From: Planctomycetota bacterium
Lineage (GTDB): Bacteria; Planctomycetota; MHYJ01; WSZJ01
DNA length: 13,307 nucleotides
NCBI GenBank assembly: GCA_038060895.1
Contig: JBBTCT010000046.1
Span: 1 to 13,307, forward strand
Direction of reading: 5' to 3'
Program-made: the position numbers and the translations under genes
The notes under the pieces: generated by a model
Database searches by the model: none
What the model was told of the DNA's origin: nothing
Seen by the model: the letters and a program-made list of their open reading frames with translations, nothing else
Shown: piece after piece, positions 2 through 13,305 of the stretch
Layout: every line of letters begins with the position of its first letter
Position numbering within the stretch: the first letter of the stretch is position 1

Positions 2-628
2 GGGCTGGGCGCGCACAACGAGGACCCGAGCCTGCCCGGGTACACGGAAGAAGGTGCGCGCGCCGGCCACCAGAGCGACATCGGGATGTCCCCGCCGCCG
101 CAGGCGATGAAGGGAATGCTCGGGACGTTTTACCACCGGGTTCCGCTTCTGCATCCCGACCTGCGAAAAGTAGGAATCGGCTACTCGAAGCTGGCTTCCG
201 GGGGCGGATGGGGGCGCGGGCGGTGCGTGATCGACTACTCGGGGGTGGGTGAGAAGGACGAGAAAGTTCAGCGCGTGGTCGGATATCCGCCCGACAAGGC
301 GACCGGCGTGCAGGTCAGGTTTGACAACGAGAGCCCGGATCCGATTCCGCCGGGGGAAGACGAAGAGGCGGGGATGCCCGTGACGCTGGCCTGGGTCGAT
401 GGCGAAAAGATCACCGATGCGGCCGTCGAGCTCACCGAGGGCGGCATCAAGGTTGACGGGTACCTCTCCAGTCCGGAGCACCCCGCCCGGTCCGACTTCC
501 CGAACGAGGCGATCTGTTTCATCCCGAAGAATGCCCTGAGCGGGAACACGAAATTCCACGTCAAGGTCTCGGCGAAGGTGAACGACGAACCGTTCGTGAG
601 GGAGTGGGATTTCACGACGGCGAGATAG
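2..628 (+). CDS. CAP/SCP-domain protein with a C-terminal Ig-like beta domain, 5'-truncated
   Basis: The frame of the 86..628 ORF is open back to position 2 (GLGAHNEDPSLPGYTEEGARAGHQSDIGM...), so the gene starts outside the window. HxExP..PGYTxEG..AG and TFYHRVPLLHPDLRKVGIG match bacterial CAP domain motifs. The C-terminal YPPDKATGV...ICFIPKNALSGNTKFHVKV...WDFTT resembles the Ig-like module often fused to them. Confidence 0.75.
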   Translation, partial: GLGAHNEDPSLPGYTEEGARAGHQSDIGMSPPPQAMKGMLGTFYHRVPLLHPDLRKVGIGYSKLASGGGWGRGRCVIDYSGVGEKDEKVQRVVGYPPDKATGVQVRFDNESPDPIPPGEDEEAGMPVTLAWVDGEKITDAAVELTEGGIKVDGYLSSPEHPARSDFPNEAICFIPKNALSGNTKFHVKVSAKVNDEPFVREWDFTTAR

Positions 629-2417
629 GCCGGGCCGGAGGGATTCCCCGGCCGAGCACCTCGGCCGTCAGGGCCGTCGCGATCATCGCGTGTTTCTTCT
701 GCCACTCGTCGGGTTCGTGAAAACCCATCGTGTGGGCGGAGTACCGCAGCAGCGCGACATGATAGTGCTCCATCGATGTCACTCCCGCGCACAGCTCCCG
801 GGCCCATCCGCGGACGCGCGAGACCCCGGCGTGGATCCGCGCGAGCGCAGCGTCGGTCGCGAGAACCGCGGGAAGCGGGCCCGGAGGTTCGGCCAGCGAT
901 TCCTGCGCGAGCAGGAATTCCTCGTACAGCCGCATCCGCTTCAAGGCAGCGTCATCAGGCACCGGCAAAAGGATGAACTTGAGATCGTTCTCCAGCTTCG
1001 CGCAATCCTTCAGCGCATGGGCCGGCCCGGTGTGGAAATAGTCGATCAGCCATGAGTTCCCCGCGTCGTCCACGAGGACGTTCGCGAGATTGAGATCCCC
1101 GTGCACCCACGCCACCGGCGCATCCTGCGGGTCGCGCTTCAGCAGCTCTGGAATGCGATCGTAGAATTTCCGCAAATCCGGCAGGCCCAGCACCGCTCTA
1201 CCGAGCTGCTCGGCCCTCTCGACCGTGTGCTTCGCGTATTCGGGCTTGAACTGGTAATGCTGGAAGAGCTGGATCCGGTCCCTGACGGGCGACTGGGACA
1301 GCCGGACCAGGATATCGTCCCAGAGCTGGTCGAATAACTCCTCGATCTCAGCCGGGGTCGGAGCCCGCTTCACCCGCGACTGGAGCGTCTCGACGGCGGA
1401 GTGGTGCATCGAGGCGTAGAAATACTTGATGGCGCCGCGCGTCGCGAGATCCGCGAAATCGGACATGGCCGGGGCGGATGAGCCCAGGACGTTCTCGACG
1501 CGCTCGACGGCTGCGCGCTCCCTCGCGATCTTCTCGAGCGAGTCCGTCTTGACGACGAAGGGAACCTCCCGGCGCCCTTCCTGGTCCACGCTCTCGGTCC
1601 GGAACACACGGGCGCCGCTGAACCCGCCCGACAGGCTCTTCAGTTTCACGGACCTGCAATCGCGAAAAAGGTGCCGTACGAGGCCGGCATCCTCGCCCTC
1701 GACCGGGTCGCCCTCCACGCGGACTCCATAGCCGGTCGCCGGTGCCCGCGCCGGCTCGGCGCCGACGCCGAGGGTGCGAAGGAATTCCGGGATCCCGTCG
1801 ACGACGCGGACCGCGAGGTTCTGCGAGAGGAGGTCAAGGGCCTGGAAATGACGGACCCGGGAGCGGCTCGCGCAAAGCGCGGAGCAGAGGACGATGTTCT
1901 CGATGCCGAAGCGCGTGAGCAGGTCGTAGGCGAGGTACTGCACCTTGACGTCGGTCCACACTCCGATGATCCCGGCAACGGCTTCCGGCGGAGCGGTCGT
2001 CCCGAGCTGGCTCCGGAGGCGAGGGGCTAGGTCGGTCCCCTCGAAGTCGTTGAGCACCGTCGAGTTCACGGTCAGCGTTCGCGCGTGGCCGGCGGAAAGT
2101 TCCGCCAGCGGATCGACGTAGGCGGCGCCGGGCGTGTCCTTGAGGCAGTGCGTGCCGAAATGGGCGAGATGGTGCGCCTGCGCCGGGTCCGAGGCGTCGT
2201 GCCAGTCGCGGATGTGCACGACCGTGTGCTCAGGTCCGGCGCCCTCGTAAAAGGCGCGCAGGAATCGCCCGAGCGGACCCGTCCGCGGCTCGTCCCCGAC
2301 GAGGCGATGGGATTCAGCAGCGCCGATGTGAAGCTGGTTCGGGATCGGCCGCCCTGCCGTGACCGGCGCGACGAAGTCGTTCTGGAGGCACTGCGTGAAG
2401 AGGAAGAATCGTGGCAC
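612..2417 (-). CDS. Isochorismatase/nicotinamidase-fold domain fused to an APH-like (TCAD9-like) phosphotransferase domain, 601 aa
   Basis: GTG start at 2417 with AGGA 7 nt upstream. Residues ~1-216 carry PncA-like motifs LQNDF, RDWH, GTHCLKDTPGA and GVWTD. Residues ~245-590 carry the Gly loop LSGGFSG, VVK290, E300, HGDLNLAN (D441, N446), WLID459 and HxxxDxAKLE. Confidence 0.88.
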   Translation of the reverse strand: MPRFFLFTQCLQNDFVAPVTAGRPIPNQLHIGAAESHRLVGDEPRTGPLGRFLRAFYEGAGPEHTVVHIRDWHDASDPAQAHHLAHFGTHCLKDTPGAAYVDPLAELSAGHARTLTVNSTVLNDFEGTDLAPRLRSQLGTTAPPEAVAGIIGVWTDVKVQYLAYDLLTRFGIENIVLCSALCASRSRVRHFQALDLLSQNLAVRVVDGIPEFLRTLGVGAEPARAPATGYGVRVEGDPVEGEDAGLVRHLFRDCRSVKLKSLSGGFSGARVFRTESVDQEGRREVPFVVKTDSLEKIARERAAVERVENVLGSSAPAMSDFADLATRGAIKYFYASMHHSAVETLQSRVKRAPTPAEIEELFDQLWDDILVRLSQSPVRDRIQLFQHYQFKPEYAKHTVERAEQLGRAVLGLPDLRKFYDRIPELLKRDPQDAPVAWVHGDLNLANVLVDDAGNSWLIDYFHTGPAHALKDCAKLENDLKFILLPVPDDAALKRMRLYEEFLLAQESLAEPPGPLPAVLATDAALARIHAGVSRVRGWARELCAGVTSMEHYHVALLRYSAHTMGFHEPDEWQKKHAMIATALTAEVLGRGIPPARPISPS

Positions 2418-2424
2418 CGGGGAA

Positions 2425-2428
2425 TCCT
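2425..2428 (-). promoter_or_regulatory. Probable Shine-Dalgarno (AGGA) overlapping the upstream TAG stop
   Basis: The minus strand reads AAG-TAG-GATTCCCCG-GTG. AGGA overlaps the stop of the cyclase gene and lies 7 nt before the GTG, and the intergenic gap is 9 nt. This suggests translational coupling. Confidence 0.5.
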
Positions 2429-5400
2429 ACTTCAGCTCCGCGAGAAGGCGCTCGAATTGACCTGCCTGGAGAATGGCGCCCGCCTCCCGCGCCCGGCGCA
2501 GGCCCTCGCCTGCAAGCTCACGGGCCCTTGCCGCATCTCCCGCGCCTTGCCGGATCCGTGCTTCGTCCGATAGCAGGCGCATCCGGTCGCGGAAGGGAAC
2601 GCGAGCGAGCGGACAGATCGAGGAGAGCGTTTCGATGATGCGGAGCGCTTGCGCGCCTTTCCCCGCCCTGGCTTCCAGCAGTGCTTTCGTGGCCGCGGCT
2701 AGCAGGCGGCCGATCGGATCGTGCATCGCGTCGGCGTCGCGCTCGGCCGCCGCCAGGGCGTCTTCGGCGCCGTGTCGGCTTAGAGAATCACGGAAGCGCG
2801 CCACGAGGGTATGCGCGCGTACGCCATCGACCAGGCATCGTCCGCCCGCAAACTTCCGGGTGGCCGCCTCGAATGACGCGAGAGCTTCCTCTGGCCGCCC
2901 GCGAGACTCGGCGATTTCGCCACGGACAATCTCTACGCCTGCCTGGATCTGCGGCCGGCCGCTCTCGGAAGCAAGGAGAGCGGCCTCCTCCACGAGTTGG
3001 AGAGCTTCAGCGCAACGGCCTGTGTCCAGGAGCGCCTGCGCCTTGCCCGAGAGCGCCACCACGAGGTCGGCCTTGAGATTCAGGCCTCGCGCCAGCCCTG
3101 CAGCCACTTCGAACGAGGCCGCCGCTTGGTCCGGGATGCCCTGCGCCGCCCTGCAGAGTCCCGCGATCCAGTGTATCTCCGTGATCTCCTCGGCCGGGTT
3201 GAGCCCGCGCGACAACTCCAGGGCCTTCTGCACCGATTTCTCCGCCCGGTCGAATTCCCCCCGCCTGCAATGCCCATCCGCCGCCGTTCCGAGCGTCCGG
3301 ATCGCGTTGAGTTTTTCTCCCGCCGCCTCAAAGACCTCCATGGCGCGCTGCAGGTGCGCCACGGACTCCGAGTCCATCCCGAGCTCGCCCTCAACACGAC
3401 CGAGGACACGCAAGGCAATACCGACAAGCCTCGGCGACGCGACGCTCTCGCGGATCTGGAGCGCCTTGCGGGCCAGCGGAAGAGCCCGCGCGTGCTCCCC
3501 GCATGCCTCAAGGATGCTGGTGCAGCGGACGAGCATGATGGCTTGCGATTCGGGAGCCGTCGCTCTGTCGAGCGCGAGGATTTCCTCGACGAGCTGGATG
3601 CCGTCGTGCCGCCGGCCGGTCGTCGCGTCGAGCTCAGCCAGCATCGCCAGGGCAATGACTTCGCTGGGAGTGTCGCCCGCGGCGCGGTGCAGCCGAAGCG
3701 CTTCGGTCAGGTCTGCGCGCGCTTCAACTTCCTTCCCAAGTCCCGAATTTGCCTGCGCCCGCTGTACGAGCGTAGTCCCGATGCGCTGCCGGCATCCGGC
3801 GTCGAGGCGAAGTTTTATCGAGCGGTCGCACGCTTCGACGGCCTGCGCGTGCCGGCTGACTGCGATGTAGACCATGGCGATGTTGTGCTCGCAGGCGGCC
3901 TGGCCCAGGACGTGGCCGGCCTGGCGCGAGAATTCCGCGGCCTTCGCGTAACCGTCGAGTGCATCGGTGGTGTTCCCGTTGTGCCAGGCGCGGATGCCCC
4001 GGATGTTCCAGGCCGAGGATCGCAGCTCGAGCCAGGCCGGTTCCGGGAGGAGGCCACGCGATTCGTCCAGCAGCTGCTCCGCGACGGGAAGCCCTTTGTC
4101 GATTTCTGCCCAGCAATTCAGCAACTGATGGTTGGAGAGGCGGACCATGACGACCCGAAGCCGATCGACCGGCGTGAGGGGGGCGGTGTCGACGGCGGAC
4201 ATCCGGAGAAGCGCTTCGGCCGACCGGCCCTGCCCCTGCTCGGCGCCGGCCGCGAGAAATTCGAAAGCCACTCGCTCGCCGGGCGAGAGCCCTGGTTGTG
4301 CCAGCGCACGCGCGCAGACTTCCAGGGCCTCCGCGTAGCGTGTGAATGCCGAAAGTGCGCGAGCCCCGGCCAGCGCGGCAGGGCGCGTAAAACGGAGCGA
4401 GAGGGCCGCGAGAGCGTACTCCGCCACTTCGCCGACCGCGCGCGCCTCGTCCGCCTCGACCGCTGCCGACTCCCATCGCGACGCAGCGCCCGCTTCGTCG
4501 CCCGCGAGGCGCAACTGTTCGGCCGACATGGCGCGCAGCCTGCGGCCGCCCGTCGGCGCCCGTGCCTCGAGCGCCGCGGCCCCCGCCGTATGCAGGCGCT
4601 GGCGGTCTTTTCTCGGAAGCAGGGAGTAGGCGGCATCGCGTAGCAGCGCGTGCCGGAAAGCCAGCTGACGTTCACCAGGCACGAGCGAAGATGGCTGCAC
4701 CATCAGGAGTTCCCGGCGAAGCGCCTCTTCGAACGAACCTGAAACCTCGACGCCTGCTGTTTCGGCGACCAGGGCCGGCCAGAACGCCCGACCGAATGCG
4801 CTCGCCGCCTTCAGCGCTTCGCGAACTGCGGTCGGCTGCTCGTCGAGACGGGAGACAAGCAGGCCGAGGAGGGAGTCGGGAAGGGATTTCGCGTCCAGAC
4901 CCGCGGGGTGTGAGAGGATGGCGCGGGCCAGTTCTTCGATGAAGTAGGGATGCCCGCCGGCCCGCTCGATCACCTGGCGGGCGAGGACCGTGGTGCCGCG
5001 AGAGCCGAGGAGCGAGAGAGCGAGGCGTTCCGACGCGTCGTGGCCGAGGTCGCCCAGTGCGATGCGCTCGAAGCCGACGGGGATGGCAGGGCCGGGTCGC
5101 CTGGTCGCGATGATGACGACGGGCATGCGGGCGAGGCGCACCGCGAGCTGGGCAAGAAGTGCGAGCGTTCCGGCGTCTGCCCAATGGAGGTCTTCGAGGC
5201 AGAGGAGGACTGGTCCGCGCAGCGCGCGCGCACGCAACCACTGCACCCATGCCCCGGCGATTTCGTCCGCCGCTCGCGCCGGCTCCAGTTTACCTGTGCG
5301 TGAATCAGGAACCTGGATCCCGATGGAGAGCGCAATCAGTGCCGCCGTATCCTCGCGTTCAACCGCGGAGGTGTCGAGCGCCTCGAGGCCGGCTGCCAGA

Positions 5401-6263
5401 GCCGCCGCAAACCGCAAGGCTTCCCCCGGGGACGATCCGCTCACGCCGGTTTCTGCCCGCACGACTTCCGCCATCGGCCCGAGTGGGGCGCGGACGCCTT
5501 CATAGGCCCGGCCGACGGCCACCCATGCCCGCCGTCCCGATCTTCTGACCCTCGCGCGCATTTCCGCCAGAAGCCGGCTCTTCCCCACGCCTGCCGATCC
5601 TTCCAGCACGAGGAATGCGCCGGTCGCAGCGCCCACCCGCCGCACGAGGTCCTCGAGTTCCGCCTCGCGGCCCACCAGGGCCGTGCCTCGGGCTCCTTCG
5701 ACGTGCTCCGTCTGCCCCGTCAGTTCTTCAATCACCTCGAACGTCTGCACCACCCCTTCGCGGCCCTTCAGCGTCACTTCACCCCTCGGTTCGTATCGGA
5801 ACAGCCTCGCTGCGCCGTCGTGGGTAGCAGACGACACCAGGACGGCCCCCCGCGGGGCCGCTCCCTCCAACCGCTGGGCCACGTTCACAGCATCCCCCAT
5901 CGCGGTCGCCGCGGAGCCGCCGACGCTTCCCCAGAGAACCTCCCCCGTGTTCACTCCGACGCGCATCGCGAGCTCGAGGCCGCGTTCCCGGTTGAACGAG
6001 ACAAGTTCGCGTTGAAGAGCCAGCCCGGCGCGGACGGCGCGGGCGGGGTCGTCGGCATGGGCGACGGGCGCGCCGAAGACGGCCATGACCGCGTCCCCGA
6101 TGAACTTGTCGACGGTGCCGCCGAGGGACTCGATGGCGGCGCGGAAGCGGTGGAAGAGGGCGTCGATGGTGTCGGCGACGTCCTCAGGGTCCATGCGTTC
6201 CGAGAGGCGCGTGAAGCCGGAGAGGTCGGAGAAGAGGATGGAGACGATTCGGCGTTCGCGCAT
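2427..6263 (-). CDS. Class III adenylate cyclase - STAND (AAA_16-type) ATPase - TPR repeat protein, ~1278 aa
   Basis: Numbered from ATG 6263 (alternative ATG 6278): ILFSD13LSGFT, DK53FIGD57, RVGVNTGEV, T120AMGDAVN127VAQR131LE and LK166GR. Then LVGREAEL, Walker A GSAGVGKS, Walker B LLCLEDLHWAD, GGHPYFIEEL and FRHALLRDAAY, followed by several hundred residues of helical TPR-like repeats. The ORF-track start at 6335 translates an intergenic A-tract and is unlikely. Confidence 0.92.
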   Translation of the reverse strand: MRERRIVSILFSDLSGFTRLSERMDPEDVADTIDALFHRFRAAIESLGGTVDKFIGDAVMAVFGAPVAHADDPARAVRAGLALQRELVSFNRERGLELAMRVGVNTGEVLWGSVGGSAATAMGDAVNVAQRLEGAAPRGAVLVSSATHDGAARLFRYEPRGEVTLKGREGVVQTFEVIEELTGQTEHVEGARGTALVGREAELEDLVRRVGAATGAFLVLEGSAGVGKSRLLAEMRARVRRSGRRAWVAVGRAYEGVRAPLGPMAEVVRAETGVSGSSPGEALRFAAALAAGLEALDTSAVEREDTAALIALSIGIQVPDSRTGKLEPARAADEIAGAWVQWLRARALRGPVLLCLEDLHWADAGTLALLAQLAVRLARMPVVIIATRRPGPAIPVGFERIALGDLGHDASERLALSLLGSRGTTVLARQVIERAGGHPYFIEELARAILSHPAGLDAKSLPDSLLGLLVSRLDEQPTAVREALKAASAFGRAFWPALVAETAGVEVSGSFEEALRRELLMVQPSSLVPGERQLAFRHALLRDAAYSLLPRKDRQRLHTAGAAALEARAPTGGRRLRAMSAEQLRLAGDEAGAASRWESAAVEADEARAVGEVAEYALAALSLRFTRPAALAGARALSAFTRYAEALEVCARALAQPGLSPGERVAFEFLAAGAEQGQGRSAEALLRMSAVDTAPLTPVDRLRVVMVRLSNHQLLNCWAEIDKGLPVAEQLLDESRGLLPEPAWLELRSSAWNIRGIRAWHNGNTTDALDGYAKAAEFSRQAGHVLGQAACEHNIAMVYIAVSRHAQAVEACDRSIKLRLDAGCRQRIGTTLVQRAQANSGLGKEVEARADLTEALRLHRAAGDTPSEVIALAMLAELDATTGRRHDGIQLVEEILALDRATAPESQAIMLVRCTSILEACGEHARALPLARKALQIRESVASPRLVGIALRVLGRVEGELGMDSESVAHLQRAMEVFEAAGEKLNAIRTLGTAADGHCRRGEFDRAEKSVQKALELSRGLNPAEEITEIHWIAGLCRAAQGIPDQAAASFEVAAGLARGLNLKADLVVALSGKAQALLDTGRCAEALQLVEEAALLASESGRPQIQAGVEIVRGEIAESRGRPEEALASFEAATRKFAGGRCLVDGVRAHTLVARFRDSLSRHGAEDALAAAERDADAMHDPIGRLLAAATKALLEARAGKGAQALRIIETLSSICPLARVPFRDRMRLLSDEARIRQGAGDAARARELAGEGLRRAREAGAILQAGQFERLLAELK

Positions 6264-6273
6264 GGGGAGGGCA

Positions 6274-6279
6274 ATCATA
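6274..6279 (-). promoter_or_regulatory. Candidate -10 element TATGAT for the cyclase-STAND operon
   Basis: The minus strand reads GC-TATGAT-TGCCCTCCCC-ATG(6263). It is a 5/6 match to TATAAT in very GC-rich DNA, with no Shine-Dalgarno and no clear -35. Confidence 0.4.
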
Positions 6280-6319
6280 GCGGGGAGGGGAGTGCTGGGG
6301 AGAACGGCCAGGGCGAAAG

Positions 6320-6347
6320 GAAAAACGAAAAACAAAAAACGAAAAGG
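6320..6347. repeat. Imperfect 7-bp A-rich tandem repeat (4 units) in the divergent intergenic region
   Basis: GAAAAAC (6320-6326), GAAAAAC (6327-6333), AAAAAAC (6334-6340), GAAAAGG (6341-6347), read directly from the sequence. Confidence 0.8.
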
Positions 6348-6362
6348 CTGACGGGCGCGGGC

Positions 6363-6368
6363 TATTCT
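6363..6368 (+). promoter_or_regulatory. Candidate -10 element TATTCT, possibly for a leaderless transcript
   Basis: GGC-TATTCT-TTCGCG-ATG(6375): a TAnnnT hexamer 6 nt before the start codon, with no Shine-Dalgarno. Confidence 0.4.
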
Positions 6369-6374
6369 TTCGCG

Positions 6375-7475
6375 ATGCCTTCAAGACGCATGCCATGGGA
6401 CTCGCCGAAGAACGCCTTCACCCGGTTGCTCGAGGAAAAGCGCGCTGCGGGGGCGCGGCTCATCGACCTGACCCTCTCGAACCCGACGAAGGCAGGAATC
6501 GCGTACCCAGGAGTGGAAATCCTCGACGCGCTCCGGGACGAGAGGGCCCTGGTCTACGAGCCCGATCCGCGCGGACTCCGGGACGCGCGGGAAGCGGTCG
6601 CAGCCGAGTACGGAGTTTCACCGGACGCGGTTCTGCTCACCGCCAGCACGAGCGAGTCCTACTCGCTGCTGTTCAAGATGCTCTGCGACCCCGGCGATTC
6701 GATTCTCGCGCCTCAGCCGTCCTATCCGCTTTTTGATCACCTCGCGGCCCTCGAGGGAGTTCAGATCCAGCCGTATCCGCTGGAGCGGGAACGCGACTGG
6801 CAAGCCGGGTTTCCAGCCTCGACAAATGCCAGGGCGATCCTCGCGGTCAGCCCCAACAACCCGACCGGTTCGTGGTTCGGCTCCAAGGAGGATCTCTCCC
6901 ACGTTCGTCGGCTCGGTCTGCCGCTGATCGTCGACGCCGTCTTCGCGGAGTACCCGTTCGGAGTCGCGCCCCCACCGCCCCGGGAATCGAGGGACCTGGA
7001 CGTCTTTACCCTCGGAGGCCTGTCGAAATCCGCGGGACTTCCGCAGATGAAGCTGGGTTGGATTCTCGCGACAGGCCCGGGAGCGCACGCGGCTCTTGAG
7101 CGTCTCGCGGCAATCGCGGATGCCTACCTCTCGGTTTCCGCTCCCGTCATGCGCGCGGCGCCCAGGCTGCTTGCGCTCGCGCCCCGGATCCGTGCGCGCA
7201 TCGCCGCCCGCACGCTCGCCAACCTCGACGCACTGCGCGCATCCGTGGGAGACCGTCTTCTGAAACCCGGAGGCGGCTGGTACGCCGTCGTGGGACCCTG
7301 CGCCGGGCGTTCCGACGAGACGTGCGCGCTCAAACTGCTGCGGGACGACGGCACGATCGTGCACCCCGGATACTTCTTCGATTTCCCTGTCAACGGGTAC
7401 CTCGTCGTCAGCCTGCTGGCACCGGAAGCGGAGTTTCGCGAAGGCTCGGCCCGACTGGCGTCCCACCTGCTCTAG
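6375..7475 (+). CDS. PLP-dependent aminotransferase class I/II family protein (fold type I), 366 aa
   Basis: Begins MPSRRMPWD...IDLTLSNPT. Motifs are YEPDPRGLRDAREAVA, LTASTSESY, PQPSYP, SPNNPTG, LIVDAVFAEY and GGLSK218SAGLPQMKLGW (Schiff-base Lys). The ORF-track portion 5703-6374 is mostly antisense to the cyclase gene and is excluded. Confidence 0.9.
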   Translation: MPSRRMPWDSPKNAFTRLLEEKRAAGARLIDLTLSNPTKAGIAYPGVEILDALRDERALVYEPDPRGLRDAREAVAAEYGVSPDAVLLTASTSESYSLLFKMLCDPGDSILAPQPSYPLFDHLAALEGVQIQPYPLERERDWQAGFPASTNARAILAVSPNNPTGSWFGSKEDLSHVRRLGLPLIVDAVFAEYPFGVAPPPPRESRDLDVFTLGGLSKSAGLPQMKLGWILATGPGAHAALERLAAIADAYLSVSAPVMRAAPRLLALAPRIRARIAARTLANLDALRASVGDRLLKPGGGWYAVVGPCAGRSDETCALKLLRDDGTIVHPGYFFDFPVNGYLVVSLLAPEAEFREGSARLASHLL

Positions 7476-8104
7476 CGCAGTTGCCTGAAAATGACCTGCC
7501 GACCCTTCCAGGGATACTCGAACGCGCGCTGCGACCTCGCCCGCCATCCGGTTCCCTCCAGCGCAGAAATAAGATCATCCACGCGCTTCCAGTAGAAACT
7601 CTCGTAGCTCCCCGGCTCCTCGCCTTCTTCCGATCCGGCGACGGCTTCCACGATGAACAGCCCGCCGGTCACGAGCACGAGCGCGATCTCCTCCGTCAGC
7701 ACGCCGAGATCGGCCGCATGGTCCAGCGAATTCGAATAGACGGCATCAAAGGAACCGCGGCGAAAGGGAAGCCGGTGAAAATCAGCCGGGAGGACCTCTG
7801 CGTTTTTCGCGCCCGGATTCAGGTCAATCCCGATGGCGCGGGCGCCGGCGTCCCGGAATGCACGGACTTCCGCTCCTCTACGGGCTCCAAGGCACAGGAC
7901 CCGCAATCCCCGGACCTCGGGCAACCGCTTCGCCAGCGCGGCCTGGAACTCGCGCTCGTAAGCGTCAATTCCCTTGGTCCTGGCCAGCTTCGCCTTCTGG
8001 TGCGCCACGTACGCCGCATAATCGGGGTACTGTCGCCGGGACAAGGCGCCCTCCGTGGACCACGGCAGGTCCTTGGGTCTGTCCTTCCGGCGGAAGAGAC
8101 GCAT
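7472..8104 (-). CDS. Class I SAM-dependent methyltransferase (Methyltransf_11-like), ~210 aa
   Basis: Motif I VLCLGARRGAE, motif II AIGIDL, ADFHRLPF, SFDAVYSNSLDH and EIALVLVTGG. ATG 8104 was chosen because the longer ORF overlaps the divergent SPOUT gene. The start is uncertain (ATG 8173 is also in frame). Confidence 0.85.
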   Translation of the reverse strand: MRLFRRKDRPKDLPWSTEGALSRRQYPDYAAYVAHQKAKLARTKGIDAYEREFQAALAKRLPEVRGLRVLCLGARRGAEVRAFRDAGARAIGIDLNPGAKNAEVLPADFHRLPFRRGSFDAVYSNSLDHAADLGVLTEEIALVLVTGGLFIVEAVAGSEEGEEPGSYESFYWKRVDDLISALEGTGWRARSQRAFEYPWKGRQVIFRQLR

Positions 8105-8191
8105 CCGCAGATTTTGTCCGAACCCGCCGCGCAGGCCAGCGATTCCGTTCTCGACCTCGCAATTCGCAACCATCGAGTACCGTCTTCGCCC

Positions 8192-8941
8192 ATGGAACAC
8201 CTCGAAGGCTGGCTGCAGGTCAGCGCGGCGCTGCGCGCCCGCCGCCGCCGCTTCCAGGTCGTCCTCGTGGCCGACAATTCCCGAAGCGAAGGAATCGCGC
8301 AGGCGGTGGCCGACGCGGAAATGGTCGGGGTGCCGGTGAAGCGGGCGCCGGCCACGGATCTGGATGCCATGGCGCACGGGCGGACGCACGGCGGAGTCAT
8401 CGCGGTGTGTTCCGCGCGTCCGCCGTCGCCGTGGGAAGAGATGGAAGCGATGGTCTCAAAAAAAACATCGGTCTTGATCCTCCTCATCGAGGGAGTCGAG
8501 GACGCCCGCAATCTCGGGTTTACCCTCCGCTCCGCCGACGCCCTGGGCGTCGATGCGGTGCTGCTGAAAAAACACGTCTGGGATTTCGACCCCGTCGAGG
8601 TCTCGCGGGCGGCCAGCGGCGCCTGGGACTCCCTTCCGCTCTTCCGGGTCGAACGCGCCGCCGAGGAAATCGACGCGCTGCGCAAGGCCGGCGTCCTGTT
8701 CTGGGGGTGCGTCCCCAACTCCCGTCGCGCCGCGTGGGACGCCGATCTCCGGAAAAAATGCTGCCTCGCGATCGGAGGCGAGAAGCGGGGACTTTCGGCC
8801 GTCGTGCGAGAACGATGCGACGGATTTCTCACGATTCCCATGCGCGCGGGCGCAACCTCGCTCTCTCTCAGCCATGCGGCCGCCGTCCTGCTCGGCGAAG
8901 CGTCCAGGCAGCGGGGAATCGCCCCTTCGCTTCGGGACTAG
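8192..8941 (+). CDS. TrmH/SpoU-family (RlmB-like) SPOUT RNA 2'-O-methyltransferase, 249 aa
   Basis: N-terminal substrate-binding domain (EGWLQVSAAL...THGGVIA) plus SPOUT motifs EGVEDARNLGFTLRSADALG, IGGEKRGLS and IPM...SLSLSHA. The ORF-track portion 7322-8191 overlaps other genes and is excluded. Confidence 0.9.
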   Translation: MEHLEGWLQVSAALRARRRRFQVVLVADNSRSEGIAQAVADAEMVGVPVKRAPATDLDAMAHGRTHGGVIAVCSARPPSPWEEMEAMVSKKTSVLILLIEGVEDARNLGFTLRSADALGVDAVLLKKHVWDFDPVEVSRAASGAWDSLPLFRVERAAEEIDALRKAGVLFWGCVPNSRRAAWDADLRKKCCLAIGGEKRGLSAVVRERCDGFLTIPMRAGATSLSLSHAAAVLLGEASRQRGIAPSLRD

Positions 8942-11900
8942 TCGCTCAGCCGGCGGACTTCTTCCTCAATCTTCTTTTCGACGCCGAGACGGCGGCGATT
9001 GAAGGCCGAGAGAGAATTCGCCTGGGCCAGTGCGACGCGCGCGGCCTGGCGCGCTTCATCCCGCCGCCCCAGGGACTCTTCGGCGCGCGCCAGGTGGGCC
9101 TGCAGCAGGAACCGGTCGAACGCGTCTTCCTCGGGCCGGTCGGCGAAGGGGAGAACTTCGACCACCAGGTTGCGTGCTTCCTCGCCGCGGCCCAGCGAAA
9201 CCAGGGCGGCGGCGGCACAGGACGCGAGTCCGGGAAGATCGCGAGTGAGCTTGAAGGATCGCGCGATGGCCAGACCCTCTTCCGCTTCGGCAAGCGCCTC
9301 GGCATGCCGCTTCAATTCGCCCAGAAGAGAAGACCTCGTTGAGAGCGCGGACATGCTGGCGTGCGGAGAGCCGAGTGTTCGCGCGATCTCGACCGCGTCG
9401 GTGGCGTAGGCCAGGGCCTGATCCAGGTGACCCTGGTCTCCACTGAGCGCGGCCAGGTTTCCGAGCGTCAGCGTGATCTGCTGCCGGTTGCCGACGAAAC
9501 GGTACGCTTCGAGGGCGCGCAGGAAACACGCGCGCGCGGCTGCCGGGTCACCCTTTTCGTAGAGGATGATTCCGCGGTTGGCCGCGACGGAGCCGGCATC
9601 GCCGAGGTTCCCTGAGTCCTGGAAAATCTTCTCCGCCTCGTCGTAGACGGCCAGCGCCTCTTCCAGCTCGTTGCGCTGCCGGTGAACCGTTCCGTAATTC
9701 GTGAGGTGGCGGGCCAGGGCGAGAGGATTCCCGACCTGCCGCGAAATCCGGACCGCCTCGCCGAAATCTGCAGCCTGGGCGTTGAGGTCCCGCAACTCGT
9801 GAAACAGAGTGCCGCGCATGCCGACGGCGGTCGCCAGCCCGATCAGGTCGTTCGATTGCCGGCAGATCGCTTCGCCCTCGTCGTAGAGCCGGCGTGAAGC
9901 GGCCATGTCTCCGGCGACCGTCAGCACACGGGCGAGCCAGACTTTCGTGCGCGCCACGAGCAGCGGAGTTCCTTCGGCTTCTGCTTCCGCAAGCCCCAGC
10001 TCGGCCGCCTCGCGTGCGGATGCCATGTTTCCGAGGTAGAAATCGGCGCGCGAGGCGTTGCCGTAGAGGCGGCACCGCAGCGCCGACGGCGCGGGAAGTC
10101 CCTTCAGCGAAGTCGCGCACGCGGGCGGGACTTCGAGGTACAGGCCGCGGGTGATGGCAACCTCGGACCACGCGAGCAATGCGCGTCCACCCGCCTCGCG
10201 ATCCTCGGCCGTCCCGCTCGATGCGCTCCACTCTGCCGCCGCGAGGAGGTTCTCCTCGTCCAGTGACAACCGTTTCAGTGCCTCAAGGCCCTCGGGGCCC
10301 GTCAGTTTCTGCCAGCAGGAGTCCCCATACGCCCCGAAATGCCTCGCGTGGCGGCGGGGAAGACCGCTCACCGCCTCCGTCCTGTCGCCGGCCGCCTTCG
10401 ACTCACCGAATTCGCGAACGGGAGCGAACATGCCGAAGCGCGTGCCGAACGGCGTGTCCCAGGATCGGACCAGGCTGCGGTCGCGAAGCGCCTGGATGGC
10501 GTCGATGGCGAGCGGCGCTTCGTCGAAGGCCGAAAGGTCCACGACGGCCTCCGCCGCTTCCAGAAAGAAACCACCACGGAACGCGCACGCCTGGCGAAAG
10601 GCGCTTCTCTCCCACTCTGACAGTTCGCTGTATGTCCAGTCGAGGGCGCCGGTCAGTGTCTGCCGGCGTATGGCGGATCCGCTCGCGCTGTGTTCGATGG
10701 ACCCGATGCGCAGGCGAAGCTGTTCGACGATTCGTTCGGGAGTGGCGTCGCGAAGCCGGGCGGCGGCAAGTTCGAGGGCAAGCGGGATGCCTTCGAGGCG
10801 GGCGCAAATCTCGCAGACTGCCGAGGCGTTTTCGGCGCTGAGCGTGAACGAAGGGGAGTGCTCGGCGACGCGGGCGAGGAACAGACGGACGGCATCGAAC
10901 CCGGCGAGCTGGGCGGTTCCCTCGCGTCTTGTGCCATCCCGCTGCGGTTTCGGGGGGGCCGGAAGGGAACCGAGGGCGAGCTCGCGTTCGCCCGAGAGGT
11001 GCAGAAGCGCGCGCGATGTGACGAGGAACCGCGCGTCGCGGGCGCTTCGCATCCAGGTCCCGATGGTGGCCGACGCATGCGAAACCGCGGACTCGAAGGC
11101 GTCGAGGATCAGCAGAAGCGGCTTCCGAAATTCCAGGGCGGCCGCGAGGGCACGGGGCGCGTCGTCCCGTCCGCCGAGCTGGATCCCGAGCGCCGCGGCG
11201 GCGGCGCGAGCGACGTCGGACGCGGTGCGCGCTTCAGAAACGTCCGCGATCCAGACACCGCCCGCGAATTTCGGAAGGAGGGCCAGGGCCGCCCGGCGGG
11301 CGAGCCGCGATTTTCCGATCCCGCCCGGCCCCGTGAGCGTCACCAGCCGCCCGGCGGGCGTGGGGAGCAGCGCCTGGACTTCGCGCAGCTCCGCTTCCCG
11401 TCCCACAAAGGCGTTGGACTCCCTGGGGATGTTGGTGAGGAGGGCGCTTTCCGTGCGAGGCGGCGGGAACCTGCGGGAAGCGAGGGCGGAAGGGAGGACC
11501 TGGTAGAGGCGGATTTTCGCGCTGCCCGCGGTGAGGCGATGTTCGCCCATGTCGGACACGACGGACTCTGCGGGCGAAGGGTGGGCCGCTTCGATGGCCT
11601 CCGCGGTGGCGAGGGCCTGGCCTCCATGGGCCGCCGCGGACACGGCGGCTGCCAGCGCGGGAACTCCCCCGGAATACCACGGGGCGGCGCCCGCCTCAGG
11701 GTCCGCAGGCCCCGCATGAACTCCAATCCGGACGAGCAACTCGCCGGAATCTTCGGGCCAGGGGTGACGGTGGAGCCGGAGCAGGGTCTCCGTCGCAAAG
11801 CGGATGGCCGACGAGGCATCGGGGAACGCCGCCGCGAACGAATCTCCCTCGGTGCGCACGACGCTCCCGCCGTGCCCGGCGATCGCCTCACGAATGATCC

Positions 11901-12000
11901 TGTTGTGATCAGCAAGCAGAGGCGCGAATGCCGGCCCGAGCCGTTCCCACAGCGCGGTGGAACCCTGGATGTCCGTCACGGCGAAAGCTCTCTGCGTCAT
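8938..12000 (-). CDS. Degenerate class III cyclase-like domain - STAND (NB-ARC-like, Rv0386/AfsR-type) ATPase - TPR protein, 1020 aa
   Basis: TDIQGSTALW, TEGDSF, VRIGVHAG and AAHGGQ mark the cyclase fold. The NTPase module has NIP...FVGREAEL, Walker A GPGGIGKS, Walker B LLLILD, LVTSR, AVRLFLAR, ICARLEGIPLALELAAAR and RQTLTGALDWTY. About 400 aa of TPR repeats follow. Confidence 0.92.
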   Translation of the reverse strand: MTQRAFAVTDIQGSTALWERLGPAFAPLLADHNRIIREAIAGHGGSVVRTEGDSFAAAFPDASSAIRFATETLLRLHRHPWPEDSGELLVRIGVHAGPADPEAGAAPWYSGGVPALAAAVSAAAHGGQALATAEAIEAAHPSPAESVVSDMGEHRLTAGSAKIRLYQVLPSALASRRFPPPRTESALLTNIPRESNAFVGREAELREVQALLPTPAGRLVTLTGPGGIGKSRLARRAALALLPKFAGGVWIADVSEARTASDVARAAAAALGIQLGGRDDAPRALAAALEFRKPLLLILDAFESAVSHASATIGTWMRSARDARFLVTSRALLHLSGERELALGSLPAPPKPQRDGTRREGTAQLAGFDAVRLFLARVAEHSPSFTLSAENASAVCEICARLEGIPLALELAAARLRDATPERIVEQLRLRIGSIEHSASGSAIRRQTLTGALDWTYSELSEWERSAFRQACAFRGGFFLEAAEAVVDLSAFDEAPLAIDAIQALRDRSLVRSWDTPFGTRFGMFAPVREFGESKAAGDRTEAVSGLPRRHARHFGAYGDSCWQKLTGPEGLEALKRLSLDEENLLAAAEWSASSGTAEDREAGGRALLAWSEVAITRGLYLEVPPACATSLKGLPAPSALRCRLYGNASRADFYLGNMASAREAAELGLAEAEAEGTPLLVARTKVWLARVLTVAGDMAASRRLYDEGEAICRQSNDLIGLATAVGMRGTLFHELRDLNAQAADFGEAVRISRQVGNPLALARHLTNYGTVHRQRNELEEALAVYDEAEKIFQDSGNLGDAGSVAANRGIILYEKGDPAAARACFLRALEAYRFVGNRQQITLTLGNLAALSGDQGHLDQALAYATDAVEIARTLGSPHASMSALSTRSSLLGELKRHAEALAEAEEGLAIARSFKLTRDLPGLASCAAAALVSLGRGEEARNLVVEVLPFADRPEEDAFDRFLLQAHLARAEESLGRRDEARQAARVALAQANSLSAFNRRRLGVEKKIEEEVRRLSD

Positions 12001-12033: not shown

Positions 12034-13305
12034 TCAAGGCCCCGGAAGCAGTCCCGTCTCTGCGATTTTGCCCAGCCGCCTCGCGGACTCGGCGACGCCG
12101 GCATCCTTGCTGGACTCCAGGCCCAGCGCCCTGGACGTTTCGGTCGCTTCGCGGGCCGCCGCGAGCGCCGCGTCCGCGCGCCCCGCGCGCGCCTCGGTAT
12201 CGAAGAGCGCTTTCAGGATGTTGAAGGCCCGCATGGTTCGAAGCGCTCCCTGCTTTCGCAGGGATTCCGTGGCCTCCTGAAGCGCCGCCCGCGCTTCGTC
12301 GGTCCTGCCGAGCTGCATGTGAGTCATCCCTGCGTTTCCCAGGTTCAACGCATAACTACCCTGCAGCCCCAGTCTTCGCGCCTCCGCCGCCGCGGCGATG
12401 AACGTCGCCAGGGCCTCTTCAAGCCGGCCGGAGTCATGCTGCACGGTTCCGATATTCCCCATGGCGAGCATGATCGAAGCGCCGTCGCCGCTTTCCCTCG
12501 CCAGCTTCAGGGCCTCGTCATAAAGGGCCGAACACTCGGCCAGGCGTTTCTGCCCACGGCGAACCCTTGCCAGCGACGTGAGATGCATGAAGACCGGAAG
12601 CTTCAGTCCGGCTTCGCGATGCACGGCCAGCGCTTCCTCGATCAGCGGTTCCGCCTGCTCCCAGTCGCCGAGGTCCAGGTGCGTTCCGCCGCGCATTCCG
12701 GCCAGCTTCGCCGCGTTCAGCCGTGACCCGGCCGCTCCCAGTCGTTTCTCCGCCTCATCGAAGCACGCGAACGCGCCCGACGAGTCGCCCAGCATGTGCA
12801 GGGTCGTGCCGAGGTTGGCCGCGCACCGGGCGATCGCAGGGTCGTCCCCCAGATCCCTCGCGATCCGAAGAGCCTCGTCGAGAAGTCGGCGGGCGTCGGA
12901 GAGATGACCGCGCGCCCTTTCGACGGAAGCGGCGACATCGAGGGCGCGAGTGACGCCGAGCTTGTCGCCAAGGGCATGGAAGCGTTCGCGCGCGACGATG
13001 GCCTGGGCGGCGCCACGGTCGAGGTCGCCGCCGGAGAGCTGCGCTCTTGCGACGGACAGTGCAGCGCGTGCCGCGACGCCCGCGTCGTCCGACCGCGCTG
13101 CCGCGGCCGCGCCGCGATCCGCCGCCTGCCCCGCTTCGAGCGCGCGTCCTGCGCTCATGAGGGCATCGGCGAGGGACATTTCGAGATCGGCCTCAATGGC
13201 GGCGTTTCCGGTCGGCACCGTTCGGAACGCGAGGAGGCGGGCGAGGCGCTGGTCGTACGGGCCTCGCCAGGCCAGGAGAGGCTCCAGCGCGAGCGTGGCG
13301 CGCGC
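12034..13305 (-). CDS. TPR repeat protein, 5'-truncated; probably the C-terminal part of a second STAND-TPR protein
   Basis: The frame stays open beyond 13218 to the window edge (ARATLALEPLLAWRGPYDQRLARLL...). It has ~40-aa helical repeats such as AANLGTTLHMLGD and MGNIGTVQHDSGRLEEAL. It ends 33 nt upstream of the co-directional 8938..12000 gene. Confidence 0.85.
   Translation of the reverse strand, partial: ARATLALEPLLAWRGPYDQRLARLLAFRTVPTGNAAIEADLEMSLADALMSAGRALEAGQAADRGAAAAARSDDAGVAARAALSVARAQLSGGDLDRGAAQAIVARERFHALGDKLGVTRALDVAASVERARGHLSDARRLLDEALRIARDLGDDPAIARCAANLGTTLHMLGDSSGAFACFDEAEKRLGAAGSRLNAAKLAGMRGGTHLDLGDWEQAEPLIEEALAVHREAGLKLPVFMHLTSLARVRRGQKRLAECSALYDEALKLARESGDGASIMLAMGNIGTVQHDSGRLEEALATFIAAAAEARRLGLQGSYALNLGNAGMTHMQLGRTDEARAALQEATESLRKQGALRTMRAFNILKALFDTEARAGRADAALAAAREATETSRALGLESSKDAGVAESARRLGKIAETGLLPGP

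Follow-up and report, generated by a model that had tools for sequence, protein, structure and literature searches.

Introduction

Nicotinamidases (PncA) are Asp-Lys-Cys enzymes and activators of pyrazinamide, and in the enzyme of Mycobacterium tuberculosis a His serves as the fourth metal ligand. The isochorismatases PhzD, EntB, and VibB demonstrate that the isochorismatase fold works without the Cys nucleophile; these enzymes keep the Asp and the Lys and, to our knowledge, are without a metal site. A nucleophile paired with a Lys is also used by the nicotinamide mononucleotide (NMN) deamidase PncC and by the nitrilase superfamily (Ser-Lys, Glu-Lys-Cys) for the deamidation of amides, including nicotinamide nucleotides. 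Here we describe a protein of 601 amino acids (aa) from a Planctomycetota bacterium, encoded on contig JBBTCT010000046.1 (the whole stretch of 13,307 nucleotides (nt) that was analyzed is referred to as the window). It joins an N-terminal domain of nicotinamidase fold to a C-terminal kinase domain of the TCAD9/APH type. We are confident that the N-terminal domain is a functional variant pocket held under selection. It appears to be a metal-binding module of about 220 residues in which the canonical Asp-Lys-Cys triad has been lost and another constellation of residues has become fixed in the same pocket. The main question then is whether this pocket is that of an enzyme or that of a sensor.

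A literature search, which did not extend to the supplements where the TCAD domains are probably defined, returned nothing on the variant domain, on its fusion with TCAD9, or on the altered triad. In the accessible main texts of Kaur 2020 (PMC7159879), Kaur 2021 (PMC8195603), and Iyer 2022 (PMC9503650) nicotinamidase is mentioned nowhere, and the first two are also without the terms isochorismatase and TCAD. The KINtaro paper contains no TCAD term, and in the papers examined TCAD9 is found only as one entry among listed names or in the legend of a figure.

The protein and the fold of its N-terminal domain

The gene and its domains are laid out as follows.

612..2417, minus strand: the whole gene, 601 aa with a GTG start (open reading frame (ORF) and translation), encoding the nicotinamidase-fold domain and the TCAD9/APH kinase-like domain
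1743..2417, minus strand: N-terminal nicotinamidase/isochorismatase-fold domain, aa 1–225 (AF2, Foldseek, VIA-align)
2280..2369, minus strand: family-specific segment, aa 17–46, with conserved P26, N27, H30, G32, E35, R38, and G41 (hhalign gap and conservation counts)
615..1715, minus strand: TCAD9/APH-type kinase domain, aa 235–601 (Pfam, motif residues, Foldseek)

Pfam searches with the 601-aa protein gave 152 bits for TCAD9 (PF19974, cut-off 40), 40.9 bits for APH (cut-off 23.2), and 32.9 bits for Isochorismatase (PF00857, cut-off 27), the last covering aa 65–202 only. When the genome of the window (5.4-Mb assembly, 86.5% complete) was scanned with PF00857, the variant domain was the one match, and no canonical PncA was found.

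The AF2 model of aa 1–225, which was built from 75 domains of 75 species genomes, has a pLDDT of 94.4; the full-length model has a pLDDT of 89.9 and a pTM of 0.83. The top Foldseek match of the domain model is PncA of Bacillus subtilis (6a8l, E 4e-12, TM 0.69/0.83), which shares the first ranks with the nicotinamidases of Streptococcus pneumoniae. VIA-align superposed the model on 3hb7, 6a8l, and 3o93 with Z scores of 22.6, 22.2, and 22.1, respectively, at a root-mean-square deviation (rmsd) of 2.1–2.2 Å over about 180 residues and from model residue 1–3 onward. More than 40 entries of the isochorismatase-like superfamily were matched with Z scores from 22.6 down to 18, and the three-layer alpha/beta fold of that superfamily is present in the domain by both programs. 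By fold and Pfam score the N-terminal domain is a member of the isochorismatase-like superfamily, and the nicotinamidase-like fold that a first-pass annotation had read from the letters of the sequence is borne out by these superpositions. No solved structure of the variant family was found by the family-profile search, in which the closest match was 3hb7 (E 5e-11).

The catalytic site

The residues that concern the triad, with their codons, are the following.

2388..2390, minus strand: C10 (tgc), in the place held by the catalytic Asp of canonical enzymes, where strand beta1 ends (hhalign against Escherichia coli PncA)
1944..1946, minus strand: K158 (aag), in the place held by the nucleophilic Cys of canonical enzymes, where helix 155–170 begins (phmmer, family profile, hhalign)
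2061..2066, minus strand: N118-S119 (aac tcg), S119 being at the position of the canonical catalytic Lys, end of strand 113–119 (profile alignments)
2046..2048, minus strand: D124 (gac, in LNDF), an acidic residue peculiar to the family and close to invariant (Asp in 195 of 208 domains)

The codon positions given in the first-pass annotation for C10, K158, D71-W-H73, H82/H83, H90-C91, N118-S119, and D124 all agree with the sequence. Its assignment of a Cys to the Asp position and of a Lys to the Cys position is also upheld. In the hhalign alignment with E. coli PncA (sequence from NC_000913.3) C10 stands opposite the Asp of VDLQNDF, while K158 meets the Cys of TDYCV, and phmmer pairs GVWTDVKV of the domain with GVATEYCV of Pyrococcus horikoshii PncA (1ilw). 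A family profile of 75 sequences places K158 on the Cys of 3hb7, 3s2s, 1ilw, and 5zn8. In all, K158 stands opposite the canonical Cys in five alignments. In the three alignments of the same profile that run ungapped through this region (3hb7, 3s2s, and 5zn8) the catalytic Lys stands opposite S119, and the annotation was right that no Lys is left at the usual site; in the ungapped alignment with 1ilw the catalytic-Lys position falls on the non-conserved Arg113 and not on S119. D124 aligns with the Ala/Gly of the canonical ySAF/hSGF motif; it may supply the acid, as the annotation had proposed.

The annotation had gone on to describe the Cys and the Lys as having exchanged positions. Both residues do occupy new seats, but the old Lys site holds Ser119, so the change is a rotation or re-seating and not a swap. 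In the AF2 model C10 follows strand 4–9, S119 ends strand 113–119, and K158 opens helix 155–170, which in the model are the canonical topological seats of the triad. From homology and from their places in the secondary structure, the side chains of C10 and K158 probably face the pocket.

Of the four features by which a nicotinamidase is recognized in sequence, the domain lacks three (the catalytic Asp, the catalytic Lys, and the nucleophilic Cys), and it is therefore not classed as PncA. The fourth, the metal-site motif Asp-x-His...His/Glu...His, is present by alignments and residue counts.

The metal site, the aromatic cage, and the insert

The metal-site motifs lie in the following places.

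2148..2207, minus strand: metal-site segment D71, W72, H73, H83, H90, aligned to the PncA metal ligands
2207–2199, minus strand: D71-W-H73 (gac tgg cac)
2174–2169, minus strand: H82/H83 (cac cat)
2150–2145, minus strand: H90-C91 (cac tgc; C91 codon 2147–2145)

D71 and H73 fall on DWH and H90-C91 on HC of E. coli PncA by hhalign, and the family profile puts H83 on the Glu of the streptococcal metal-ligand motif HPETK. The first-pass annotation had called these motifs intact, and D71, H73, H83, and H90 do align with the ligands of PncA. It had also offered H82 and H83 together as a probable ligand; only H83 is conserved (His in 179 and Glu in 23 of 208 domains), and H82 drops out. The alternation of His and Glu at position 83 mirrors the alignment of H83 with the Glu of HPETK and is therefore read as evidence for a real metal site. 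Judged by sequence, the four-ligand site (D71, H73, H83, H90) is retained and predicted to bind a metal, and the aromatic cage (F15, W72) is retained as well.

Relative to E. coli PncA the domain has an insert of about 13 residues after QNDF (hhalign), which bears the near-invariant P26, N27, H30, G32, E35, and R38. Outside the insert H68, R70, D74, Y164, R169, and C178 are also strongly conserved among the 208 domains. The C-terminal A183-S184...H190...A193-L194 is ancestral and matches TAS...H...L of the solved enzymes in the family profile. With so many Arg and His residues conserved, the ligand may be larger than nicotinamide and anionic.

Conservation across homologues

Domain database searches gave 231 matches (120 of them listed) and 343 cluster representatives among 1.84 billion, 197 of these at E <= 1e-10. 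A hidden Markov model made from the N-terminal columns of a 54-sequence alignment matched 277 proteins, of which 209 were near full length; the 68 partial ones and a duplicate of the query (P0003) were excluded, which left the 208 domains on which the following counts are based.

Position 10: Cys 181, Ser 16, Thr 4, Gly 4, Asp 1, Arg 1, Tyr 1
Position 15: Phe 195
Position 71: Asp 203
Position 72: Trp 180
Position 73: His 205
Position 83: His 179, Glu 23
Position 90: His 206
Position 118: Asp 124, Asn 54, Glu 8 (Asn in the window protein)
Position 119: Ser 145, Ala 35
Position 124: Asp 195
Position 158: Lys 197, Cys 0

C10, K158, and D124, whose invariance among homologues the first-pass annotation had named as a check, are found in 181, 197, and 195 domains. 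It had also named a canonical Asp-Lys-Cys triad recovered by proper alignment as grounds for giving up its proposal; neither that triad nor an Asp...Cys pair occurs in any of the near-full domains (0/208). In the set of 75 domains, drawn from as many species genomes, K158 shows no variation, and the conservation of C10 is at least 90%. Residues able to act as a nucleophile (Cys, Ser, or Thr) occupy position 10 in 201 domains, and 192 combine such a residue with K158, D71, H73, H/E83, and H90. Conservation reaches about 90% of the domains or more for the four metal ligands, for the aromatic cage, and for over 20 polar residues. Lys158 is accompanied by Cys10 in 179 domains and stands without it in 18; Cys10 without Lys158 is seen in 2 domains, and 9 have neither. 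C10 and K158 therefore tend to vanish together, with the sequences being related and not phylogenetically independent. In all 43 homologues whose N-terminal domain is less than 65% identical to the query, this domain is more conserved than the kinase, with mean identities of 53% and 45%, respectively.

Since the pattern is conserved across phyla, it must be under selection, and random decay is excluded, as the annotation had held. A structural pseudoenzyme, one that serves as a scaffold, for dimerisation, or for docking of the kinase substrate and keeps C10 and K158 for packing, would fit the loss of the triad and a Pfam isochorismatase score (32.9) barely above its cut-off (27). It would also fit P0253, P0230, and P0213, divergent members that are without C10, K158, and some of the metal ligands. 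The invariant residues, however, include the pocket and not the core alone, and the retention of metal ligands, cage, polar residues, and the full constellation at the frequencies given above makes such a role improbable in our view.

Distribution, domain architectures, and the fused kinase

A pattern scan with one genome per species showed the family to be encoded at no fewer than 264 loci (at least 264 species genomes). These are spread over Planctomycetota, Acidobacteriota, Myxococcota, Bacteroidota, Gammaproteobacteria, Spirochaetota, relatives of Cyanobacteria, Elusimicrobia, and Verrucomicrobia, and one belongs to a Thermoplasmata archaeon. In 201 sampled genomes of the phylum of the window there were 11 strong matches (E <= 1e-35) and nine further weak partial ones, which are taken to be ordinary isochorismatase-family genes. 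The matches in the protein atlas are generic isochorismatase clusters only.

Nearly all members have the variant domain joined to a kinase, and in many of them a DSP-type phosphatase is attached as well. The architectures are domain-kinase (about 600 aa), domain-kinase-DSP/PTP phosphatase with the phosphatase at the C-terminus (about 770 aa), and Pkinase-domain (about 570 aa). Six proteins of this last, Pkinase-first kind were seen among 120 homologues; P0176 has a Hanks-type Pkinase at 31–278 and the variant domain at 351–572, in place of TCAD9. Some members carry additional domains (HD, NUDIX, rubrerythrin, CH, AMPK-CBM), and stand-alone variant domains of 234–253 aa exist.

Two kinds of stand-alone copies deserve description. 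In L083 (G066:C3:252000-265000, minus strand 8345–1377) a 252-aa variant (TQC..., ...TSIK) stands in a row that consists of an HSP70-like gene, the variant domain, three ORFs without Pfam match, a ThiF/E1-like gene, and a canonical PncA with its Asp, Lys, and Cys motifs intact; a near-identical stand-alone variant of 246 aa is found in L086, from the same genus. Divergent stand-alone variants (LVCPQ.DF..., ...THVKV) occur in L084 (3850–6838) and L085 (4178–6609, minus strand), each followed by a large pentapeptide-repeat protein, with stop and start overlapping.

The fused kinase, which the first-pass annotation did not include, is central to any function of the protein. In 54 full-length homologues no variation is seen at K290, E300/E305, H439-G-D441-x4-N446, or D459, nor in the glycine-rich loop, and Foldseek matched the full-length model with maltokinase 4u94, amicoumacin kinase 6sum, APH(3'), methylthioribose kinase, and choline kinase. 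From these residues the C-terminal domain is apparently an active kinase of the small-molecule type. Among the 120 listed relatives of the kinase domain 110 possess the N-terminal domain; the other 10 are proteins of 332–377 aa that start inside or just before the kinase domain.

Enzyme or sensor

Granted a selected pocket, our best guess, offered tentatively and somewhat short of an even chance, is that the N-terminal domain is still an enzyme, one with altered chemistry. The constellation would consist of a Cys (or Ser/Thr) at the Asp site, a Lys at the nucleophile elbow, a Ser at the Lys site, and the new Asp124, to which the insert of about 13 residues would add His30, Glu35, and Arg38. 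The pocket may bind a pyridine-type ligand through the metal, nicotinamide- or nicotinate-like and probably bearing a phosphate or nucleotide. This ligand would most likely be transformed, with residue 10 as the nucleophile and Lys158 either as a general base or to catch an electrophile; the helix N-terminus and the nearby metal would lower the pKa of this Lys. Conceivable chemistries are those of a Cys/Ser-Lys dyad amidase or of a Lys-centred imine or carbamate reaction. The domain could act in series with the fused kinase and, in relatives that have them, with the DSP-type phosphatase, NUDIX, or HD domain.

The catalytic reading is favored because the pocket is more constrained than the kinase, because position 10 is nucleophile-capable in 201 of the 208 domains, and because C10 and K158 are lost together. 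It is also favored because a Lys at a helix N-terminus beside a cation should have a depressed pKa, and because the company of the domain is enzymatic: a small-molecule kinase, DSP phosphatase, NUDIX, HD, aldehyde dehydrogenase, and the one row with PncA.

Several points weigh on the other side. All three canonical catalytic residues are gone, as is usual in a pseudoenzyme or sensor. Four of the 208 domains have Gly at position 10, two of them with K158 present. The near-obligate fusion with a kinase also fits a sensor-output design. The gene neighborhoods are variable, the commonest neighbor family being found in 12 of 80 loci, and therefore no pathway can be read from context; NAD-related neighbors are also few among the 146 adjacent ORFs.

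The domain could instead be a non-catalytic sensor of a nicotinamide/nicotinate-like metabolite whose occupancy allosterically gates the fused kinase, a possibility to which we assign a lesser but still considerable weight. The changes of Asp to Cys and of Cys to Lys would then abolish hydrolysis and add positive charge suited to an anionic ligand, such as a pyridine carboxylate or phosphate. This accords with the loss of the catalytic residues alongside retained binding determinants, with a domain carried by 110 of the 120 listed kinase-clade relatives in sensor-output manner, and with partners that are sometimes a Hanks-type Pkinase instead of TCAD9 (P0176). The pTM of 0.83 for the full-length model may likewise indicate a fixed inter-domain arrangement. 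However, sensor pockets usually drift, whereas this one hardly varies from phylum to phylum and is better conserved than the kinase. The Cys/Ser/Thr pattern at position 10 and its joint loss with K158 also speak against sensing, as do the stand-alone copies without an output domain and the partners, which are hydrolases and a small-molecule-type kinase and not classic signaling outputs.

Returning to the enzyme, a more specific proposal can be made, which we regard as less likely than not. It is that the cysteine-hydrolase fold has arrived at a second catalytic solution, either a metal-assisted Cys/Ser-Lys dyad or a Lys Schiff base or carbamate, that acts on a pyridine nucleotide or related metabolite. 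Together with the kinase and a DSP-type phosphatase it would make up a so far undescribed cycle of NAD-linked modification or salvage, shared by hundreds of bacterial species of many phyla.

Gene neighborhoods

Neighborhoods were compared by all-against-all clustering of 2737 ORFs from 80 loci, in which no neighbor family was found in more than 12 loci. The commonest family is aldehyde dehydrogenase, present in 12 of the 80 loci within the stretch examined per locus (L007, L010, L011, L012, L013, L017, L020, L035, L036, L063, L074, L077). These loci cover several phyla; the enzyme adjoins the family gene in 7 of them, upstream in 2 and downstream in 5, with gaps of −3 to 8 nt in some. It falls under every NCBIfam cut-off, and no subfamily was assigned. 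Second comes a DSP-PTPase encoded by its own gene next to the family gene, on the upstream side at 7 of 77 scanned loci and on the downstream side at 2 of 69; the upstream arrangement is seen in some Gammaproteobacteria. The NAD-related genes among the 146 adjacent ORFs are one ADP-ribosylglycohydrolase, one NADAR, and one NMN transporter; a TIR gene downstream in L009 is a further sporadic neighbor of this kind.

In the window itself the genes beside and beyond the 601-aa gene include the following.

2427..6335, minus strand: upstream gene of the same operon, nucleotide cyclase–STAND ATPase–TPR, 1302 aa (Pfam)
5703–7475, plus strand: class I/II aminotransferase, between the STAND genes
7322–8941, plus strand: SpoU-type RNA 2'-O-methyltransferase, between the STAND genes

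The 13.3-kb contig encodes three large TPR proteins, all on the minus strand, at 2427–6335, 8938–12000, and 12034–13305. The first two are both cyclase-STAND-TPR proteins with little shared sequence (best BLASTP E 3e-4), and the third, which is cut by the contig end, has TPR repeats only. Positions 1–611 of the window gave no Pfam match and no similarity to the gene downstream of the family gene in L001 (4873–8061), a gene whose product joins an Mrr-type restriction endonuclease domain to a NACHT STAND ATPase.

A spacer of 9 nt separates the 1302-aa gene from the 601-aa gene. At the junction (2417–2429, minus strand) the TAG stop and the start of the 601-aa gene share one reading frame, with three codons between them, and an AGGA overlaps the stop. 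The corresponding junction of L001 (2920–2936), the closest relative at 89% identity, is the same letter for letter except for an ATG start there and a GTG here. From its sequence this looks like an ordinary translationally coupled junction and not a split fusion.

Such an upstream gene raises the question of a role in nucleotide-signal conflict, that is, in defense. The 601-aa protein would then be an effector or modulator downstream of the cyclase-STAND-TPR protein that senses or consumes NAD-derived or cyclic-nucleotide signals. The cyclase of the 2427..6335 gene matches the PycC-like Pycsar model of PADLOC (E 2.5e-27), the 9-nt spacer and junction recur in L001 with the Mrr-NACHT gene downstream, and a cyclase-STAND-TPR gene is also upstream in L016 (Pfam, one of ten neighbor ORFs scanned singly). 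On the chromosome of Anaeromyxobacter oryzae (L009, 9845–10843) the family gene is followed after 15 nt, on the same strand, by a TIR-domain gene of the CAP12/Pycsar type; the typical activity of such domains is cleavage of NAD+ with release of nicotinamide, and this single case is suggestive. TCAD9 has, moreover, been associated with vWA-MoxR-VMAP ternary systems, according to a figure legend (PMC10910872).

Against this stand the facts that no PADLOC family matches the 601-aa protein (0 families) and that the vWA-MoxR-VMAP context was not found in the window, where the 12 ORFs scanned by Pfam on the 13.3-kb contig include neither vWA nor MoxR families. As a family-wide partner the cyclase-STAND-TPR gene was rejected, its pieces having been matched by tblastn in 1 of the 80 loci (L001). 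Among the 25 listed of 81 families of adjacent upstream ORFs from 77 loci no nucleotide-cyclase family is present. The cyclase-STAND-TPR gene is a lineage-specific neighbor, seen only in the window, L001, and L016. In L002, which is 83% identical, a divergent aminotransferase-like gene is upstream instead, and the opposite-frame ORF of this gene is conserved upstream in L003–L006, which suggests that the cyclase-STAND gene may have been inserted between the family gene and the aminotransferase in the lineage of the window. Neighbors elsewhere are mostly metabolic or unrelated. We therefore give a defense role little credence. An apparent upstream "paralogue" in L002–L006 was also discarded, as an Arg-rich wrong-frame ORF over an opposite-strand gene, which is aminotransferase-like in L002.

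Comparison with known systems

Proteins of about 600–800 aa in which a nicotinamidase-like domain is joined to a kinase and phosphatase are labeled in databases just as "isochorismatase family protein". If the variant domain is an enzyme, it would represent a new reaction in a well-studied fold and a clean case of catalytic-residue migration; if a sensor, it would be a natural sensor of nicotinamide/nicotinate type coupled to a kinase. Either outcome would give a first handle on the TCAD9 kinases and on these multidomain proteins.

PncC and the nitrilases offer an analogy of chemistry only, their folds being unrelated to that of the variant domain. The isochorismatases PhzD, EntB, and VibB (1nf9, 3tb4) have the same fold (Z 18–19), but the variant domain replaces both the Asp and the Lys that they keep and retains the metal site. 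With the TCAD9/APH kinases (4u94, 6sum, APH(3') 4fex) the window protein has in common the Lys-Glu pair, the HGDxxxxN loop, and the metal Asp of D-Y-F. The three-domain nicotinamidase-like/TCAD9/DSP proteins of about 770 aa, for example that of Enhygromyxa salina (P0119, 'protein-tyrosine phosphatase-related protein'), combine a TQC...K N-terminal domain with a kinase of the same clade, at 34–50% identity; the window protein is without their C-terminal phosphatase and has no adjacent phosphatase gene in the window.

The isochorismatase-like hydrolase of Alkaliphilus metalliredigens (3hb7, a structural-genomics entry) is the best match by both profile (E 5e-11) and Z score (22.6) and shares the GVWT elbow with its Trp. 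It differs in that its Cys (GVWTNVCV) and Lys (IVQKRRHSGF) are kept and in having E-A-H where the variant family has D-W-H. PncA (5zn8/6a8l, 3o90–3o94, 3s2s, 1ilw, and the E. coli enzyme) has the same fold (Z 19–22, rmsd 2.1–2.3 Å over 169–185 residues) and shares with the variant domain the QNDF motif, the D-W-H...H/E...H-C metal site, the aromatic cage, the G-x-x-T-D/E-x-X-V elbow, and the C-terminal A-S...H...A-L motif. In the variant domain, however, the Asp is changed to Cys, the Lys to Ser, and the nucleophilic Cys to Lys, at a sequence identity of just 22–27%; the near-invariant Asp124 and the insert of about 13 residues with H30, E35, and R38 are added, and the domain is fused to a kinase.

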